Positions 3,027 to 35,695 of a stretch of DNA of 62,770 bases are shown one piece after another (the stretch's first letter is position 1; every line of letters starts with the position of its first letter). The stretch spans positions 1 to 62,770 of the forward strand of contig CAYGDG010000005.1 of the NCBI GenBank assembly GCA_964348725.1, written 5' to 3'. The notes below the pieces were generated by a model. The model was not told where the DNA came from, searched no databases, and saw nothing but the letters and a program-made list of their open reading frames with translations. The stretch comes from an uncultured Candidatus Saccharibacteria bacterium. GTDB taxonomy: Bacteria; Patescibacteriota; Minisyncoccia; Phycocordibacterales; UBA9973. Position numbers and translations under genes: made by a program.

Positions 3027-3090
3027 CCCCGCCGAAGGCGGGGCTTCCCCTCTCCATTTCAATAAAATGGAGAGGGGTCAGGGGTGAGGT
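3027..3090. repeat. REP-like palindromes (GCCCCGCCGAAGGCGGGGC and CCCCTCTCC...GGAGAGGGG, family D)
   Basis: Hairpins seen directly; related copies at 8341, 15859, 16241, 16379, 16450, 17153, 17207, 21421, 27670. Confidence 0.8.
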
Positions 3091-5792: not shown

Positions 5793-5894
5793 GCAAGAAT
5801 ATTATTTCAATTCTACCTGGCCACACATAAATTTCTGCTGAAATTTTGCGCAGCCCCCGCCTCAGCGCCGTCGCGCTTCCGGCTCAAAGTTGAG

Positions 5895-6260
5895 CTATTT
5901 AAGCTCAACTTTGCCTCCTGCTTCTTCGATCTTCTTCTTCATTTCTTCAGCTTCGGCTTTCTTCATACCGTCCTTGAGTTTTACCGGAGCGCCGTCCACG
6001 AGGTCTTTCGCTTCCTTAAGTCCGAGAGCGAGCGCTTCCTTGATGACTTTCATCACCGCGATCTTCTGCTCACCAGCGGATGCGAGGTGCACTTCAAATG
6101 CATCCTTTTCCTCTGCCGCTGGGCCTGCTGCTGCAGGACCTGCTGCTGCGACTGCCGCAGCGGATACTCCGAACTTTTCTTCTATAGCCTTCACCAAGTC
6201 GTTGAGTTCAAGGACTGATGCGCTTTCCAAGTCTGCCATAAATGCGTCAAATTTTGCCAT
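5895..6260 (-). CDS. rplL: 50S ribosomal protein L7/L12
   Basis: [22 protein letters not shown]; [14 protein letters not shown]; GGKVELK. Confidence 0.98.
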
Positions 6261-6300: not shown

Positions 6301-6780
6301 CTACTTCTTTTTTGATACTTCGGAAACTGCGATAGCCAAGCGCTGTATCGGGCTCTTGAGCAAGAATGCAATCTTGGACAAAAGAACTTCACGGCTCGGG
6401 ATGGTGGCGATTTCCATCATCTTTTCGCCTTGCACGAATTTTCCTTCAAAGATACCGCCGAGAATCTTGAGCATTCCCTTGTGGGTCTTCTCAAAATTAT
6501 AGACTTCTCTTGCTGGCGCGATCTCATCCGTGGAATACGCGATGGCTACTTCTCCGGAAAGATCCGGGATCTCACCTTCCGCTTTTCCTGCGAGCGCGCG
6601 CTTTAAGAGCGTCTTTCGGGACACGGTGTATGATACGCCGTTGTTACGAAGATCCCTCCGTAGATTCGTCGCTTCGCCTGCCGGCAAGCCGTGGAAATTT
6701 ACGAAGACCAAAGTCTCCGCTCCGTCCACTGCCTTGGACAGGTCTTTTACTATTTCTTCTTTTCTTGATTTTAATAGCAT
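6301..6780 (-). CDS. rplJ: 50S ribosomal protein L10
   Basis: FVNFHGL...LRRDLR...VSRKTLLKRAL; IPSREVLLSKI; adjacent to rplL; start refined to MLLKSRK. Confidence 0.95.
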   Translation of the reverse strand: MLLKSRKEEIVKDLSKAVDGAETLVFVNFHGLPAGEATNLRRDLRNNGVSYTVSRKTLLKRALAGKAEGEIPDLSGEVAIAYSTDEIAPAREVYNFEKTHKGMLKILGGIFEGKFVQGEKMMEIATIPSREVLLSKIAFLLKSPIQRLAIAVSEVSKKK

Positions 6781-6799
6781 GTTGTTTTGTTTAAAATAA

Positions 6800-6880
6800 A
6801 AAACGGCCTTGCAGCCGCAAAAATACCGTTCGACCACTGAGTAGGATTTAAAGGTATGCCCAACCTACTTTCTTTGCGGT
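6800..6880 (-). promoter_or_regulatory. L10 leader-like autoregulatory RNA with attenuator hairpin
   Basis: AAAGAAAGTAGG...TAAATCCTACTCAGTGG resembles the L10-binding kink-turn motif; followed by CGGC-TGCAA-GGCCG and a U tract; promoter TTGCAA-17-TATGAT upstream. Confidence 0.7.
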
Positions 6881-6898
6881 ATGTGTATCATAGCACGA

Positions 6899-7054
6899 TT
6901 ATTCTGTGCTTGCAACTGCTCCCTCCTGCGGACCCCAGATGAGGGATTGCGCATCGCTGTCATCAAAATACGAAGAGAGGAATATGCCGAGAAGCCCCAA
7001 CCCTATCATGATTGAAAATACTGTCAGAACTTTCCAAAAATGCTTCGTAACCAT
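6899..7054 (-). CDS. Small single-pass membrane protein (51 aa, below the ORF-track cutoff)
   Basis: MVTKHFWKVLTVFSIMIGLGLLGIFLSSYF...; TATAAT 7 nt upstream of ATG. Confidence 0.65.
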   Translation of the reverse strand: MVTKHFWKVLTVFSIMIGLGLLGIFLSSYFDDSDAQSLIWGPQEGAVASTE

Positions 7055-7107
7055 GTAAGTAATTATACCATACATTCATGCCACCCCGCGGAAGTGTTTT
7101 TAATAAC

Positions 7108-7155
7108 ATGCCAAGAACAAAAAATCCCCTTACGGGGATTTTTTGTTCTTGGCAT
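7108..7155. terminator. Intrinsic terminator T2 (copy a)
   Basis: 22-bp perfect arms around TTAC; core AAAAATCCCCTTACGGGGATTTTT repeated at 8376-8409. Confidence 0.85.
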
Positions 7156-7637
7156 TATTTCTGAATCAGAATCGTAGCCACATTCTGCGAGGAATCGCAG
7201 TCTATGAGCCATGTGGCCGGCACCGTAGAGCTTGAAAGCTTTACGATTTTGAAACCATAGCCCTTGATAGTGAATGTACTGCCGAGCTTCACAGTGCGAG
7301 TAACGGCAGAACGATTGTCTACCATGATGCTTGAGCCATTCTTGAAGGTCGCGGCATTCGGATGCGCTTGGCATACAGTATCCAACTGTATCCTTCTGTC
7401 CTTATACAATACCAAGGCCTCCTTGTAAGAAAGAAGCTTTGCAGGAGCAGTGGCGGCGGCTGGGGCGTTCACACTGCCTTCAGTCGTATCTTCCACGGAT
7501 TCCACTTCAGCCTGTTCTTCAGAGGATGGCTCACTTATTTTCGGTTCATCCTTCTTGTTAGCTGACCAGATTACAATTGCGAGTACAAGCACGAGGGCGG
7601 CTACGATGGCGATGACAGTGCTCTTATTTTTTTCCAT
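7155..7637 (-). CDS. Membrane-anchored hypothetical protein, beta-rich C-terminal domain
   Basis: TM helix at residues ~8-24, acidic linker. Confidence 0.75.
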   Translation of the reverse strand: MEKNKSTVIAIVAALVLVLAIVIWSANKKDEPKISEPSSEEQAEVESVEDTTEGSVNAPAAATAPAKLLSYKEALVLYKDRRIQLDTVCQAHPNAATFKNGSSIMVDNRSAVTRTVKLGSTFTIKGYGFKIVKLSSSTVPATWLIDCDSSQNVATILIQK

Positions 7638-7746
7638 ATATTTTTCTTTTTCCTCTTAGGGCATTTGGTTGATAATACTTAGTATAGCACACATACCAGG
7701 CAACAAATCAAAAACCACCCCTCATAGTCCATCGCTGATGATGGAC

Positions 7747-7783
7747 TTTTGGAAAGCTTTGACAGCTTTCAGGGTAGCATTGC
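7747..7783 (-). repeat. 37-bp fragment of a peptidoglycan-binding-domain coding sequence (copy 1)
   Basis: TTTTGGAAAGCTTTGACAGCTTTCAGGGTAGCATTGC identical within copies at 8438-8608 and 9315-9485. Confidence 0.9.
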
Positions 7784-7810
7784 TTCCGCGAGGACTGTCC
7801 TTGCGGAAGC
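7782..7810. repeat. REP-like palindrome family A (AGG-ACAGT-CCT core)
   Basis: GCTTCCGCGAGG-ACTGT-CCTTGCGGAAGC. Confidence 0.85.
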
Positions 7811-7921
7811 ACTTGCGAGAGTTGCGAGAACAGTTGACTTCTTTCCTTCTATTGCTGTACTAAAAATGTGCTTGTGGGGCGCCAGCCCTATTCGGCTAAT
7901 ACATAAGCCGAAGGCAAGCAT

Positions 7922-7957
7922 AAGAAAAAATCCGCCTTCTAAGGCGGATTTTTTCTT
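7922..7957. terminator. Intrinsic terminator T1 (copy a)
   Basis: AAAAAATCCGCCTT-CT-AAGGCGGATTTTTT; related copy at 9234-9260. Confidence 0.8.
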
Positions 7958-7990
7958 TAATCTTCTTCGGGATTACCTTTCATGGTAGAG

Positions 7991-8021
7991 TGCTTGCGCA
8001 AGGACAGTCCTTGCGCAAGCA
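7991..8021. repeat. REP-like palindrome family A
   Basis: TGCTTGCGCAAGG-ACAGT-CCTTGCGCAAGCA, 13-bp arms. Confidence 0.9.
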
Positions 8022-8022
8022 A

Positions 8023-8304
8023 TTAAACTACCAAAGGAACTCCAAAAACCTTTGTTTCTAAAGTTTCAATTCTTTTATCATGATTATCCATAACTACTTG
8101 GGTCAAATCATCTATTTTTCCATTAGTTTTATCAAAATTTTCCCGAGTTTCAAGCTTAAAATCCCGCAAATTAGTTTTGACTTGTTCTAAATCAACCTTG
8201 GTAGCCATAGTAGTATCTTCTACACGTGAAAGTCTTTCCTCCACACGGGTGAAACCATTATTTATGGCTTCTAAGAGTTCTATATTTGTTATTTCCTCTT
8301 TCAT
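8023..8304 (-). CDS. Coiled-coil hypothetical protein
   Basis: MKEEITNIELLEAINNGF...MATKVDL...HDKRIETLE; TATACT 7 nt upstream of ATG. Confidence 0.7.
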   Translation of the reverse strand: MKEEITNIELLEAINNGFTRVEERLSRVEDTTMATKVDLEQVKTNLRDFKLETRENFDKTNGKIDDLTQVVMDNHDKRIETLETKVFGVPLVV

Positions 8305-8375
8305 ATTTATAAGTATATCAAACTCTGTTTTCTTTGCAAACCTCACCCCTGCCCTCTCCTGAAAAGGAGAGGGTG

Positions 8376-8409
8376 AAAACAAAAATCCCCTTACGGGGAT
8401 TTTTGTTTT
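8376..8409. terminator. Intrinsic terminator T2 (copy b)
   Basis: Same core as 7108-7155. Confidence 0.8.
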
Positions 8410-8437
8410 TGTGGAATTACCACATGAGAGGACAGAT

Positions 8438-8647
8438 TTACATCCCCATCAGCTTCGCGCGGGATTTTGATCCGAAGATGCCGTCCGCCGTGAGGCCTTT
8501 TGCTTTTTGGAAAGCTTTGACAGCTTTCAGGGTAGCATTGCCGAAGATAGTGGTTTCCATGCCTGGAGATCCTGCTCCGCTTACGGAGACAGTAAATCCT
8601 GCGGCATTCAGCATCTTTTGCATGCATTTCACCTGCTCATTCTTCAC
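8438..8647 (-). pseudogene. Stand-alone peptidoglycan-binding domain (copy 2); small gene or fragment
   Basis: VKCMQKMLN..G......GSPGMET..FGNATLKAVKAFQK..GL.ADGIFG.KSRA, paralogous to the S-layer N-terminus; no signal peptide. Confidence 0.6.
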
Positions 8648-8683
8648 GCCTTCAGAGCATCCTGCGACAGAACATGCTTCAAG

Positions 8684-9007
8684 TTAAAACTTGTATAATT
8701 TATTCCAAACTGAAACTGTCTGCTTTTTATCGCCAATAGAAAGAACCCCAAGCTGTCTTTGTAAATCTGCTTTTCTTAAAGTGGCAACTTTTGCCAATCT
8801 CACCCACGAATCAAGCAATAATCCCGATTGTTTCCAATTTTTAATTTTAGTATCTCCTTTGCCAGTCCGCTCAGCGCTTGTTATCGGCGCAAGCACAATA
8901 TCATCATCTCCAATATCCAGAACGACAAGAGCTGGGCGTTTTTTCTTATTCCCGTCTGTTTGATGAAAAGTAGCGAAAACAATATCGCCAAATTTATATT
9001 TGGTCAT
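8684..9007 (-). CDS. PemK/MazF family toxin
   Basis: YKFGDIV...F.QTDG.KKKRPALVV...DIVLAPITS; start refined to MTKYKF. Confidence 0.9.
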   Translation of the reverse strand: MTKYKFGDIVFATFHQTDGNKKKRPALVVLDIGDDDIVLAPITSAERTGKGDTKIKNWKQSGLLLDSWVRLAKVATLRKADLQRQLGVLSIGDKKQTVSVWNKLYKF

Positions 9008-9185
9008 AAATTTCGTCAGATTTACTGTAAGATTTAAAAAACTTATCTTTAGCGGCTCTTTTCCATAAATGTTCGTCATCTTCAACCATCTTTAAGTGCT
9101 TCAAAAGACTCTCGTACTGCAAGCGAGGGACGAGCATGAGGTCTTTTTCTTTTATTAGATTGTGGGGAATTGTTATCGTGGTCAT
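8994..9185 (-). CDS. Putative antitoxin paired with PemK
   Basis: 63 aa, overlaps the toxin start by 14 nt; TATAAT 6 nt upstream of ATG. Confidence 0.7.
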   Translation of the reverse strand: MTTITIPHNLIKEKDLMLVPRLQYESLLKHLKMVEDDEHLWKRAAKDKFFKSYSKSDEIYDQI

Positions 9186-9233
9186 ACGTTCATTATACCA
9201 AACACTCTATTTTTCTGCAAATTCTAGAAGTAG

Positions 9234-9260
9234 CAAAAATCCGCCTTCCGGCGGATTTTG
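9234..9260. terminator. Intrinsic terminator T1 (copy b)
   Basis: AAAAATCCGCC-TTCC-GGCGGATTTT. Confidence 0.75.
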
Positions 9261-9314
9261 TGCTTTATTTGATTTTATTCCTAGCAACTAGAACCTAGCC
9301 GCTAGAAACTAATC

Positions 9315-9485
9315 TTACATCCCCATCAGCTTCGCGCGGGACTTTGATCCGAAGATGCCGTCCGCGGTGAGGCCTTTTGCTTTTTGGAAAGCTTTGACAG
9401 CTTTCAGGGTAGCATTGCCGAAGAGAGTGGTTTCCATGCCTGGAGATCCGGCTCCACTTACGGAGACAGTAAATCCTGCGGCATT
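9315..9485 (-). pseudogene. 5'-truncated peptidoglycan-binding-domain fragment (copy 3)
   Basis: 171 bp, 5 mismatches versus 8438-8608, no start codon, capped by a family A palindrome. Confidence 0.8.
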
Positions 9486-9515
9486 GCTTCCGCAAGGACA
9501 GTCCTTGCGGAAGCA
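9485..9515. repeat. REP-like palindrome family A
   Basis: TGCTTCCGCAAGG-ACAGT-CCTTGCGGAAGCA. Confidence 0.9.
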
Positions 9516-9526
9516 GGAAATTAAGA

Positions 9527-11056
9527 TTACATTTCCAGCATGACGTTCATCTTTGCGCGAGACTTTGCGCCGAAGATGCCGTCAGCTTTGAGGCCGTTCT
9601 CTTTCTGGAAGAGTTTGATAGCGGCTTCGGTCTTTCCACCCCACTTGCCGTCAACGACGAGCAGCTTAGAAAGCTTCATAGCAAGGACTTTATTCAAGGC
9701 CTCCTGCAAGTGCATGACATTCGCTTTTGAACTTTTCTTAGTGACAGTCATAGTGATTACAGATACTGAACCGTCTGAATCGATAACAGTGACAGTAGGA
9801 ATAGTCGGGGTACCAGTCACTACTAGCTGCGCCAATGCGTCAGCAGTAACAGGAATTGAATTGATCGTCAGACCCGGATTAGCAGTGGTAGTTGTTGTAT
9901 TTGTAGTAGTCGTAGTTACGGTAGTACCGGTAGTAGAAGCATCCTCCACTGGATTTGAACCTACAACTGGAGTTCCTATGGTAGTAAATGTCCAGGAAAA
10001 AGGCATGCCGTACAAGCTATTTAAACCAGCTGCTGCATCCGTAGCAGCTGAAATTGTCGCTGTATATGTCTCATGATGAGGGAATGAGCTGTGTGCTAAA
10101 CTTACGGTCTTATCACCATTTGACCATGTGGGAGTGTAAGTAACTACAGGACTTGTGGCGAATGTGAGCGAACCAGTCGTCATTGGTTCAGAGAAAATGA
10201 CAGAAAGCGCACTTGTCCTGCTTATTCCTTTCGCAGTATCTGTAGGGGTAAGCGTGACAGCTATCGGTAGAGCGGAGTCAGCCAACGTCAGAGAAGACTT
10301 TGTAGGCACATCATTCAATGCTCCGTCTTCCAAACCATTGCCAGGCTGGGTGTAGGTGACTACAGGCAATGTAGCACCACCGGTAGTGTTTACCGTACCT
10401 GGGGTAGCCAAAGTTATAGTAAATGTAGAGGTGCCGTTTGTGGCGCAAGAGTCAGATGCGTTACGAGCGATTACTACAGTACCTGCAGTGTTTACTGTCA
10501 TGTCCACGTTACCAGTATATGCTGTACAAACCATACCGGTATCAGCAGTAGTCGTATATATTATGCGGTCTACAGCACCGTTATTGTTGTTGTCAGTAAA
10601 TACTCCAGTGAGGATGACTGGGGCCGCTCCGTCTGTAATAGACTGAGAAGCTTTTGCAGTCATTACCCCAGAAGTCAAAGTAACGCTTCCTGCTGTTCCT
10701 ACGTTTGCATAACTAATGATTGGAGCAGTAGATCCTCCAGTTTCATTAGCATCAGCAGTGACTAGAATATCAAGGTTGGTATCAGAACCAGTGCAGCTGA
10801 GACCAGTAATAGCTACATTAATGGAGCCTGCTGTGTTTACGGTCCAGTCCCCTGCTTCATATGCACAAGCTGTGACATTTTCATCCATCACCCAGCGAAT
10901 TTTTTCAACAGTCCCGTTTGTGTTTGCATCCAAATATGCTTTAGTAACAATTGTGTTAGCTGCATGCACTTTGTTCACGGAAACTAAACCGAATGAAGCG
11001 AACGCCAAAGCGAAGACGAACGCTACTATGGAAACATTTTTGAAATATAATTTCAT
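9527..11056 (-). CDS. Secreted surface protein: two D-x-N-x-N-G repeats, Ig-like (Big_5-type) domain, Thr linker, C-terminal peptidoglycan-binding domain
   Basis: Signal peptide; DANTNG and DNNNNG repeats; FSEPM...FSWTFTT; DGKWGGKTEAAIKLFQKENGLKADGIFG. Confidence 0.8.
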   Translation of the reverse strand: MKLYFKNVSIVAFVFALAFASFGLVSVNKVHAANTIVTKAYLDANTNGTVEKIRWVMDENVTACAYEAGDWTVNTAGSINVAITGLSCTGSDTNLDILVTADANETGGSTAPIISYANVGTAGSVTLTSGVMTAKASQSITDGAAPVILTGVFTDNNNNGAVDRIIYTTTADTGMVCTAYTGNVDMTVNTAGTVVIARNASDSCATNGTSTFTITLATPGTVNTTGGATLPVVTYTQPGNGLEDGALNDVPTKSSLTLADSALPIAVTLTPTDTAKGISRTSALSVIFSEPMTTGSLTFATSPVVTYTPTWSNGDKTVSLAHSSFPHHETYTATISAATDAAAGLNSLYGMPFSWTFTTIGTPVVGSNPVEDASTTGTTVTTTTTNTTTTTANPGLTINSIPVTADALAQLVVTGTPTIPTVTVIDSDGSVSVITMTVTKKSSKANVMHLQEALNKVLAMKLSKLLVVDGKWGGKTEAAIKLFQKENGLKADGIFGAKSRAKMNVMLEM

Positions 11057-33745: not shown

Positions 33746-35695
33746 TTATTCAGCCACGCGCTCCCCTGTGCCTAAGGGGAAGGCCGGATCGCTCGAGAGC
33801 CTGGTGCTCAAAGAGGTCTTATTGACCCGTACATTCACATTAGCAAAATCATCGTGTCCGGTCAAAACGGCATCATTGATGATGACCGGCGCCGAACCGA
33901 GCTGCGAGAGGGACGGCTTGAATGCTATCTGGAAAGAAACTTCTCTGTCCGCGCCGGAAAGTCCGGTGCCTTTCGGAATACCGCCCACCTTCCAGGTTAT
34001 TTCCTTTGTGGAAGAATTATAGGTTAGGTCTTCCTGCGGCGGCGAGATAGGGCCGACGAAGCGCATCCATGGCGGCAATGTCGCGCGGACCTGTGCGTTG
34101 GATACATTGTTCGCCGTATTTGAAAGTGTCCAAGTCACCGTGTACGTGGTTTCCTGCTCTACTTTCGGCGGGATGGGTCCGGTATTCGCGAACGGTCCGG
34201 AATAGTACAGAGCTTTGGCGGCCAAGCCGAGCTCAGAAATAATACGGATGATCTTTGTTTCGGAATTCGTCAGTTTCTTGACCGAGTTGCCTTCGAGCGG
34301 CTCCGCGCCTTCTATGGATACTTCTATGCCGATAGCCGGAGTTTCCAACAGACCGGAAGATGAGAAGAGCGCGTTTGGAGAAAGAGAGAATCCCACAGAG
34401 CCGGCATCTCCCGGTTCTATTTCCATAAAAGCCGGATTGCTGTTCTTGTCCCAGATGAGCGTGTTTTCGTTTGAATTATAGAAACCTTGTTCTGCTTGTA
34501 TGGATTTCCGATTCACGGCATTGCCGGAAATTTTCGCGCGGATGACCACGTTTGATAGCTTGGTATTGAGATTGTTTGCCCAGCGTATCTCGCCCTGAAT
34601 CGGCGTGCGGGTATCACTGGCATATTCGCGGGCATACTGTCCGTTTATATATAATTTAGCTTCAATGAAGGGCTTCTGGATCACCACGGTATGCGAGAGC
34701 GAGTTGAATACGACACCGATGGAAGACTTGTCGTTGTCTGACTGCGTGCCGCTCCAGATGTGAAAAGTTTTTTCTTCGCCGTCGGAAACATCCACCATCT
34801 TACCGATCACAGAAATGGTACGCTCGGCACCAGGAACGAGGTCACCCAGGTTCCAGACATTGTTCCCGAGCGACGGTGACGGCTTGGCCGAGACAAATTG
34901 AAAGCCCACCGGATAATCCACTTTCAGTAATATTTTTGAAGCTGCCTTTGTGGCATTCAGGGAAGTCTTGATATCAAAAGCGATTTCCTGATTCGGGCTT
35001 GCCTCCGTCGGCGCATTGACGGAAATATTTATCGGCGCGGAACTGATAGTCACTTGGTAAGCTTTTTCTTTTACGAAGATCGCATTCGAGCCTTCCACGC
35101 GATATTCGAGGGTGATGCGGATGGGCCGGATACTGCCTTGCTCGCCGAAAAGAGTGATCTTCATGTTTTCATTGCGTACGCCGCCGGACGGAATGGATCC
35201 GAGCGATTCGCGAAAACGCTCCGTCTCATTCGAGAGATCGCCCGAAGAGCTCTTCGGGTATTCGATGACCAGGTCAGCTAGCTCGAGAGCGGAATTGTTC
35301 CTGTTCGTTATTTCTACTTGCAGCGGCAGCTCTTCCCCGCCGGCCGTGAAGGCGTTGCCGAGGACGGCGATGTCGATATTGTCATTCGAAACGGTATTGC
35401 CGCCCGCGAAGAACATATATGCGGCGAATGCGAGCGCCAAGGCAAAAAAAACTATCGAGAATATAAAAAATTTCTTGAACATCGAAGTCTTCATGTAAAA
35501 TTTCTCTTCCGTATTTACCTTTTCTTCTTTCTGCCAGGCGGTCGGGACATTTTTTTTCACGAAATGAGTGAAGCCTTCTCTGCGAACTCCGCCGCTGGCG
35601 AAAGTCTTACTGGAAAGCTTCGTCTTCATCTGATCAAGACCCGTCAATTTCTCCCGCTCCATCTCTTTTTCAATATCTTTTTCTTCCGAAGCCAT
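33746..35695 (-). CDS. Membrane-anchored protein with multiple Ig-like/DUF11-like domains
   Basis: Single TM near the N-terminus, beta-rich body, TGPIPPKVEQETTYTVTW motif. Confidence 0.7.
   Translation of the reverse strand: MASEEKDIEKEMEREKLTGLDQMKTKLSSKTFASGGVRREGFTHFVKKNVPTAWQKEEKVNTEEKFYMKTSMFKKFFIFSIVFFALALAFAAYMFFAGGNTVSNDNIDIAVLGNAFTAGGEELPLQVEITNRNNSALELADLVIEYPKSSSGDLSNETERFRESLGSIPSGGVRNENMKITLFGEQGSIRPIRITLEYRVEGSNAIFVKEKAYQVTISSAPINISVNAPTEASPNQEIAFDIKTSLNATKAASKILLKVDYPVGFQFVSAKPSPSLGNNVWNLGDLVPGAERTISVIGKMVDVSDGEEKTFHIWSGTQSDNDKSSIGVVFNSLSHTVVIQKPFIEAKLYINGQYAREYASDTRTPIQGEIRWANNLNTKLSNVVIRAKISGNAVNRKSIQAEQGFYNSNENTLIWDKNSNPAFMEIEPGDAGSVGFSLSPNALFSSSGLLETPAIGIEVSIEGAEPLEGNSVKKLTNSETKIIRIISELGLAAKALYYSGPFANTGPIPPKVEQETTYTVTWTLSNTANNVSNAQVRATLPPWMRFVGPISPPQEDLTYNSSTKEITWKVGGIPKGTGLSGADREVSFQIAFKPSLSQLGSAPVIINDAVLTGHDDFANVNVRVNKTSLSTRLSSDPAFPLGTGERVAE

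Follow-up and report, generated by a model that had tools for sequence, protein, structure and literature searches.

A putative accessory island of small cargo units, repeated gene ends, and REP-like palindromes behind a surface-protein gene of a Patescibacteria genome

Results

The DNA examined here (the window) is a stretch of 62,770 nucleotides (nt) from an uncultured Candidatus Saccharibacteria bacterium (assembly GCA_964348725.1, contig CAYGDG010000005.1). Its segment 7640-9526, located behind the gene for a 509-amino-acid (aa) surface protein, is probably an accessory island, which was accreted by recombination at the 3' end of a PG_binding_1 (PG) domain sequence and was later colonised and trimmed by REP-like palindromes. 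The island separates genes that are directly adjacent in related species, namely a surface-PG gene on one side and a gene for a 160-aa anchored protein, followed by rplJ, on the other. Its cargo consists of three self-contained units with promoters of their own: a PemK/MazF toxin-antitoxin (TA) pair, a gene for a coiled-coil protein, and a gene for a small structured RNA (sRNA). The boundary that recurs between the units is the 3' end of the PG domain, present as direct repeats, together with a palindrome designated A. The initial annotation had described the locus as a hotspot where cargo is exchanged between palindromes and terminators. The locus does vary between species (G002, G006, and G007; see below), but no evidence was obtained for the terminators T1 and T2 as breakpoints; they look like ordinary terminators carried along with gene 3' ends.

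Organization of the island

The genome studied (G000) comprises 957 kb in 26 contigs and has a GC content of 47%; the window is its contig C5. All protein-coding genes of the region are encoded on the minus strand, in the order 1242-aa surface protein, 509-aa surface protein, mosaic, 160-aa anchored protein, small membrane open reading frame (ORF), rplJ, and rplL. The 1242-aa surface protein has an N-terminal PG_binding_1 domain. The features of the island and its flanks are listed in Table 1.

Table 1. Features of the island and its flanks in the window, in minus-strand order.
Feature	Position	Strand	Remarks
509-aa surface protein gene	9527..11056	-	signal peptide, Big_5, C-terminal PG_binding_1 (PG0); Pfam
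Palindrome A, copy 0	9485..9515		11 nt past the surface gene stop codon; joined to PG1 at A/ATGC (slash, junction)
PG1	9315..9485	-	3' 171 nt (56 codons and stop) of PG_binding_1 domain, 5' part missing; Pfam 2.7e-9
T1 hairpin terminator	9235..9259		55 nt past PG1 stop
TA promoter and 63-aa antitoxin gene	8994..9221	-	promoter 9221-9192, 10/12 matches, with TG; gene 9185..8994
PemK/MazF-type toxin gene, 107 aa	8684..9007	-	Pfam PF02452, 3.7e-12, 46.9 bits (cut-off 23.1)
PG2	8438..8683	-	complete PG_binding_1 domain and stop, preceded by truncated linker; gene body missing
T2' terminator	8376..8409		24-nt core identical to T2
D element	8342..8376		belongs to the dispersed CCCTCTCC...GGAGAGGG palindrome family
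Coiled-coil protein gene, 93 aa, with promoter	8023..8340	-	promoter 8340-8312; phrog_5225, 1.3e-5
Palindrome A, copy 1	7989..8023		overlaps stop codon of coiled-coil gene
Degenerate PG remnant, about 17 nt	7974..7990	-	abuts palindrome A copy 1; alignment CCTTTCATGGTAG vs GCTTTCAGGGTAG
T1b bidirectional terminator	7922..7957		16-bp stem; ends sRNA (+) and coiled-coil gene (-)
Promoter and three-way-junction sRNA, about 56 nt	7836..7921	+	TTGACT-18-TACTAA; RNA 7866-7921, followed by T1b (to 7957)
Palindrome A, copy 2	7781..7811		centre base T (A in the other copies)
PG3	7747..7780	-	34-nt internal PG fragment (GNATLKAVKAFQK); joined to palindrome A at GCA/ATGC
160-aa N-terminally anchored protein gene	7155..7637	-	conserved downstream neighbour of the island
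T2 bidirectional terminator	7108..7155		22-bp stem; ends anchored-protein gene

Palindrome A (TGCTTCCGCAAGGACAGTCCTTGCGGAAGCA) is present, as initially reported, in three copies of 31-35 nt with 15-17-bp arms and a 1-nt centre; none is expected in shuffled sequence. At up to four mismatches, the three island copies are the only ones across the 957-kb genome. The threefold occurrence of the PG segment was confirmed as well, with copies of 171 nt (PG1), at least 210 nt (PG2; a 69-aa ORF at 8438-8647, Pfam PG_binding_1 1.4e-14), and 34 nt (PG3). The fourth, degenerate remnant had been missed.

These segments form direct repeats around two of the cargo units. The TA pair, whose unit measures 877 bp, is bracketed by the 171-nt PG repeats, with PG1 upstream and PG2 downstream. 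The sRNA unit is bracketed by direct repeats of about 48 nt, each consisting of a PG remnant and palindrome A; the 17-nt remnant displays the same junction as that of PG3 with palindrome A and makes up one such repeat together with copy 1. PG1 (9315-9485) and PG2 (8438-8608) share 97% identity over 171 nt. Their five differences comprise four synonymous third positions and one I/L exchange. Since four of the five are synonymous, PG1 and PG2 would fit two once-functional alleles joined by recombination, rather than neutral decay after in-place duplication.

Both clear junctions between palindrome A and PG sequence are at A/ATGC, yet they lie 60 nt apart within the domain, and no 5' part of PG was found across palindrome A from the PG fragments. 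Because PG is cut off at A/ATGC next to the palindrome, this arrangement suggests that palindromes first integrated within PG sequence or next to it and that their copies later gave rise to deletions between them.

Both terminators had been reported to occur twice. This is correct for T2, whose core (AAAAATCCCCTTACGGGGATTTTT) is identical at 7120-7143 and 8381-8404; T1 and T1b have their stem arms in common (AAAAATCCGCC / GGCGGATTTT) but differ in the loops and are therefore similar rather than identical. A T1-like terminator is located in genome G006 at about the same distance past the surface gene as T1 is past PG1. PG1, the 55-nt spacer, and T1 thus mirror the order of gene end, spacer, and terminator in G006 and probably represent an earlier gene end that has been displaced. 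A possible case of the same kind was observed at the end of rplL (window 5802-5916), where a second in-frame GQVELK plus stop codon follows about 75 nt past the GKVELK plus stop, with differing codons; it may represent an old displaced gene end, similar to the PG stubs.

The D element is present as annotated. It is, however, not specific to this locus, being one of at least 25 genome-wide copies of a palindrome family (CCCCTCTCCTTAnTAAGGAGAGGGG; for example, at window positions 3047, 15868, 16253, and 27680), which also occurs in congeners. Copies of family D often adjoin terminator hairpins. A search of Rfam gave no real match for palindrome A, T1, T2, or D.

Comparison with related genomes

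The locus was compared among relatives using rplJ as an anchor, and it proved not to be invariant. In the congener G006, a 674-aa surface-PG gene is followed by the T1-like terminator and, after 187 nt, by the anchored-protein gene; next come a Y1_Tnp-like gene, two further genes, and rplJ. The order in G002, likewise a congener, is Y1_Tnp, an 826-aa surface-PG gene, the anchored-protein gene (after 97 nt), and rplJ. Because both genomes have the surface-PG gene directly before the anchored-protein gene, the 1.9 kb present in the window is, judged from gene order, an insertion between conserved neighbours. The upstream neighbour, the 509-aa surface gene, has a 507-aa orthologue in G007 and functional equivalents in G006 and G002. 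Homologues of the 160-aa anchored protein were found in G001, G002, G006, G008, and G014.

Genome G007, an assembly of 6 contigs, contains different cargo at the same place. Its 1247-aa and 507-aa orthologues of the two surface proteins are followed by a 5.6-kb array, a GIY-YIG gene, and rplJ, with no anchored-protein gene. The array is composed of four units: Y1_Tnp with a coiled-coil gene, NYN, an identical second Y1_Tnp with a coiled-coil paralogue, and PemK. Five copies of the PG 3' end of the 507-aa gene are interspersed between them, one at every cassette boundary. These copies are nested in their 5' extents and terminate in the same stop codon, and four of the five also have their downstream sequence in common; one copy is 100% identical over about 300 nt. 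By this comparison of sequences, an array of the same kind has arisen independently at the corresponding site of another species.

Two congeners have species-specific hairpin repeats of their own after successive genes at the locus, GTGGATAACCGCCCCTAAGCTGGGCTTAGG in G006 (L011 6605-6660, 7438-7493, and 8114-8169) and CTGAGGAAGGATTATCCTTCCTCAG in G008 (L015 361-5691).

Protein-coding cargo

The antitoxin gene overlaps the start of the PemK gene by 14 nt. An antitoxin-PemK pair is also located between rnc and smc in G005, where a 64-aa homologue of the antitoxin is encoded upstream of PemK; the PemK genes share 71% DNA identity. The pair in the window resembles type II TA systems of the PemK/MazF family in having a small antitoxin ORF that adjoins and overlaps, on the upstream side, a toxin gene with an above-threshold PemK domain, a promoter of its own, and a second locus in a congener. 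It differs from them in its 63-aa antitoxin, which matched no family in Pfam or NCBIfam.

Homologues of the coiled-coil protein were found solely at the same locus in G007, with 35-40% identity. The exact products of the PemK gene (with two choices of start), the antitoxin gene, and the coiled-coil gene have no record in the public gene index. The cargo of the island is portable, because the antitoxin-PemK pair recurs in the rnc-smc gap of G005 and coiled-coil homologues recur in the array of G007.

A small structured RNA

The stretch of about 110 bp that had been listed as unexplained is in fact occupied by a plus-strand promoter, a structured RNA of about 56 nt, and a terminator. The RNA folds into a closing helix and two hairpins (z-score -3.7) and is 95% identical to a copy in G031, a member of another family, which shares this promoter and ends in a terminator of its own. 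A covariance model (R1) built from three copies matched 23 of the 301 genomes of the order, representing 21 genera (loci L021-L049). In the alignment of 32 sequences, 94.8% of cells pair, versus at most 51% with the partners slid, and compensatory changes were detected in 13 of 18 pairs. A search with Rfam cmscan in E-value mode over positions 6700-9700 returned only terminator-driven sub-threshold matches and no family for the sRNA. The seemingly empty 110 bp are now assigned to an unclassified, covariation-supported RNA family present in at least 21 genera.

In G200, G189, G270, and G031, the sRNA converges on a gene for a protein of about 160 aa (ORF~160), which ends in PDED. Members of the RNA family are usually situated beside ORF~160. 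This protein belongs to no family in Pfam, NCBIfam, PADLOC, or PHROG, and it is absent from the genome studied. The pair of ORF~160 and sRNA in G270 is flanked by direct repeats of about 70 nt. Because of these repeats and the absence of ORF~160 here, the sRNA in the window may be a stranded part of a mobile cassette. Model R1 detected no sRNA in the G007 array or at the other rplJ loci.

In contig C7 of G012 (L005 1426-1562), two tandem copies of the RNA lie directly upstream of a DgkA-like gene (diacylglycerol/undecaprenol kinase family), and the second copy overlaps its start codon. This suggests that a cis-regulatory use of the motif is possible in G012. With regard to a riboswitch function, the RNA outside G012 is followed by a terminator of its own, and no gene lies downstream. 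Another reading considered was that the sRNA unit is a REPIN whose palindromes are inverted. Both the 2-nt flanks and the centre bases (T versus A) agree with this idea, which is not claimed here: the left flanks align as direct repeats, and a perfect palindrome hides its orientation.

Palindrome A family and Y1 transposases

A looser search with the A-type core GCAAGGACNGTCCTYGC and TTCCGC/GCGGAA arms revealed about 8-10 copies in the genome: three on C5, three or four on C14, and others on C1 and C4 (C4:67367). Short palindromes of one type are thus dispersed here in multiple copies, as is typical of REP elements. The C14 copies are arranged around orphan genes near another PG-domain gene. 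In C14:2389-3333, A-type hairpins (GGTTCCGCAAGGACAGTCCTCRCGGAACC) bracket an orphan gene for a 115-aa product and a stretch with few ORFs; the cluster adjoins a cold-shock gene and another PG_binding_1 gene, which has a T2-like terminator. Two occurrences on C1 are inside ORFs, a hairpin at 34830-34856 (300-aa ORF) and a doublet at 109460-109504 (223-aa ORF), and appear to be read through as protein. Palindromes of this family therefore do insert into coding DNA.

The 25-nt core TTCCGCAAGGACNGTCCTTGCGGAA was found, in a scan of 185,579 species genomes, in one other genome, a metagenome-assembled genome of Candidatus Nomurabacteria (G325), which has two copies. One of them is located 20 nt upstream of the start codon of a Y1_Tnp gene. 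From this sharing of the exact core, the organism studied was taken to be a bacterium of the Parcubacteria/Nomurabacteria type. The Y1 proteins of G325 and G007 are 65% identical, and palindromes built in the same way (GCnAGnACAGTnCTnGC and ACTAGCTAGAACAGTTCTCGCTAGT) flank the two identical Y1_Tnp genes in G007. Y1 (RAYT/IS200-like) transposases, flanked by the family of palindrome A in relatives, are therefore a candidate enzyme class. The G007 Y1 protein scores 28.8 bits with Pfam Y1_Tnp, which is above the cut-off, and 35.5 with NCBIfam REP_Tyr_transpos, for which the cut-off is 80; it is therefore not a RAYT equivalog.

Three Y1_Tnp genes, all above the Pfam cut-off, were identified in the genome studied, one on C12 and two on C3. 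Each of the three is flanked by its own palindrome type, which differs from palindrome A. The gene at C3:49608-50335 has TGTCCAGGCCCGGCCTGGACA on both sides, another copy within the gene, and another 1.2 kb off (51557), and is REPtron-like. The gene at C3:77517-78177 is flanked by GTTAGCGCTTTAGACCCTAAC as inverted repeats and has a related palindrome within it. In REPtrons, each Y1 gene is flanked by its own palindrome type (PMC6006769). Palindrome A is best classified as REP-like, with no cognate enzyme present in this genome. Two of the three local copies have a GTAG at a distance of 2-3 nt, where it is PG coding sequence. The tetranucleotide is absent at the C14, C1, and G325 copies and does not appear to be a guide conserved throughout the family.

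Discussion

For the formation of the island, we infer the following order of events. Incoming DNA with cargo and its own version of the PG 3' end would recombine with the resident PG 3' end, either by a single crossover of a circle or by replacement of the gene end. Each such event would shift the previous gene end, together with its terminator, in the downstream direction, giving rise to a row of orphan stubs of PG plus terminator with cargo between them. The same direct repeats would permit later deletion or excision of cargo. REP-like palindromes, both A and family D, would then colonise and trim the spacers.

Several observations weigh against this explanation. The synonymous bias between PG1 and PG2 is based on only five changes (p about 0.05). 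These two copies are only about 79% similar to PG0, the surface gene's own domain; a crossover with the current gene is therefore insufficient, so that the explanation also needs at least one replacement of the gene end. PG3 has no stop codon and is thus not an att-like 3' end. The initial annotation had noted that no integrase is visible, and this holds: there is no transposase or recombinase in or near the island, and contig C5 encodes neither an integrase nor a Y1 transposase. Since the Y1 genes of this genome carry different palindromes, palindrome A may be immobile here. No strain-level relatives were found, as a metagenome scan with the anchored protein gave only relatives of at most 55% identity, so that gain and loss of cargo are seen between species only. 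Finally, independent Logan unitigs from two samples confirm only the two outer junctions, and the inner ones rest on the assembly; the flanks of the island are present in Logan unitigs of run ERR3094292.

An alternative explanation, unlikely in our view and yet with a real chance of being correct, is the decay of tandem surface-PG paralogues. The PG stubs would then be the remains of such genes, whose bodies were deleted, partly between palindromes, and the cargo would represent independent insertions, with neither integration of cassettes at PG ends nor current exchange. Two surface genes are still arranged in tandem, PG2 retains a linker stretch upstream of its domain, PG3 is an internal scrap, and palindrome A is located exactly at the three truncation points. 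PG2 shares 66% amino-acid identity with the N-terminal PG domain of the 1242-aa protein, and both PG1 and PG2 are closer to this domain than to PG0. However, deletions alone do not create the direct repeats that flank the TA and sRNA units, and G002 and G006 have no extra paralogue between the surface and anchored-protein genes. The PG ends of G007, with 100% identity, nested 5' extents, and a common stop codon, are typical of repeated events at one site. An artefact, that is, a strain-variant chimera or a mis-join at short repeats in a metagenome-assembled genome, is very unlikely. The assembly does consist of 26 contigs, its repeats of 31-171 nt are within the range that confuses short-read assemblers, and the TA and coiled-coil products are missing from the gene index. 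Of the two unitigs, L051 runs from the stop codon of the 509-aa gene through palindrome A into PG1, while L050 begins inside PG3 and extends through the anchored-protein gene into rplJ; both end in a 31-mer common to PG1, PG2, and PG3. Such breaks might point to a mis-join, but a real repeat with multiple contexts also gives them, and the outer junctions were recovered in independent unitigs from two samples. Moreover, the 171-nt copies differ at five positions, so the assembler neither merged nor duplicated them, promoter, gene, and terminator fit together in every unit, and the 6-contig genome G007 contains the same kind of array.

Even less likely is a site-specific system, in which the units of PG end and palindrome would be attC-like sites used by an unrecognised recombinase or by the RNA-protein cassette with which the sRNA is normally associated. 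The loci in both G000 and G007 look integron-like, with genes followed by a recurring 3' site, and the cassette of ORF~160 and sRNA has flanking duplications in G270. Against this, the only tyrosine recombinases (PF00589) of the genome are two Xer-like genes on other contigs (C3:70658-71209 and C2:124135-124641), ORF~160 is absent, the repeat boundaries have no common core position, and the G007 array contains no sRNA. A broader speculation, improbable but less so than the two preceding alternatives, would unite the rows of orphan gene ends observed here, in G007, and behind other genes. They would be footprints of mini-cassettes of Patescibacteria that lack an integrase and insert at, and regenerate, gene 3' ends. 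One of these cassettes would encode the protein of about 160 aa and the 56-nt RNA, conserved like an rRNA, which together would form a ribonucleoprotein guiding or aiding insertion; the window's sRNA would be its stranded half.

To our knowledge, Patescibacteria, also known under the name Candidate Phyla Radiation (CPR), have tiny genomes with few recognisable mobile-element enzymes, and no cultured genetics is available for them. For these reasons, the ways in which they acquire accessory genes are poorly known. The locus in the window and its counterpart in G007 display a repeatable pattern: behind a cell-surface gene, small units with promoters accumulate, are bounded by copies of that gene's wall-binding 3' end, and have REP-like, Y1-linked palindromes at their scars. 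The pattern offers a testable model in which homology drives both accretion and loss at a conserved domain and selfish palindromes assist, and it marks the locus as a place to seek strain-level variation in metagenomes.

Comparison with known systems

Islands and prophages are known to integrate into the 3' end of a gene, to regenerate this end, and to leave a partial duplicate; tandem accretion may occur at one att site. One example is the integration of e14 and phage 21 at icd. Similarly, direct repeats of the target-gene 3' end bracket the insert in the window, and partial gene ends form rows with cargo between them. Unlike these islands, the locus has no element-encoded integrase, its units are tiny (0.2-0.9 kb), its repeats are long and of variable extent, which resembles homology rather than a fixed core, and one of its stubs lacks a stop codon.

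With cassette arrays of integrons, the island shares a row of small, mostly single-gene units with a recurring, partly palindromic site and a fixed anchor upstream. The differences are the absence of IntI, attI, and attC structures and the presence of a promoter in every cargo unit. The recurring boundary is a PG coding fragment of the neighbouring gene together with a terminator, and palindrome A, a perfect hairpin found at some boundaries only, is no attC site. A further parallel is provided by the orphan arrays of C-terminal ends and immunity genes behind cdiA and rhs, in which displaced gene ends retain homology for recombination into the main gene. Displaced gene ends pile up downstream of the main gene in the island as well. 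The piece repeated here, however, is a conserved wall-binding domain instead of a variable toxin tip, and the intervening genes are unrelated cargo.

REP/REPIN-RAYT systems (PMC3116915; PMC6006769) are characterized by dispersed short GC-rich palindromes, with several families per genome, and by palindrome types that each flank their own Y1 HUH gene. Both traits are recognizable here, the latter in the three Y1 genes of this genome and, for the A type, in G325 and G007. Palindrome A deviates from these systems in lacking a cognate Y1 gene in its own genome, so that a Y1 gene flanked by the same palindrome is found in relatives only. It also has few copies, near-perfect 15-17-bp arms, and apparently no conserved 5' GT[AG]G; its copies are situated at junctions of gene fragments and inside ORFs, and the Y1 proteins score below the RAYT cut-off. 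REP/RAYT elements, insertions that regenerate gene ends, and TA cargo are all known components; their combination is new, and it occurs in a CPR genome and recurs in two species at a single locus that lacks an integrase.

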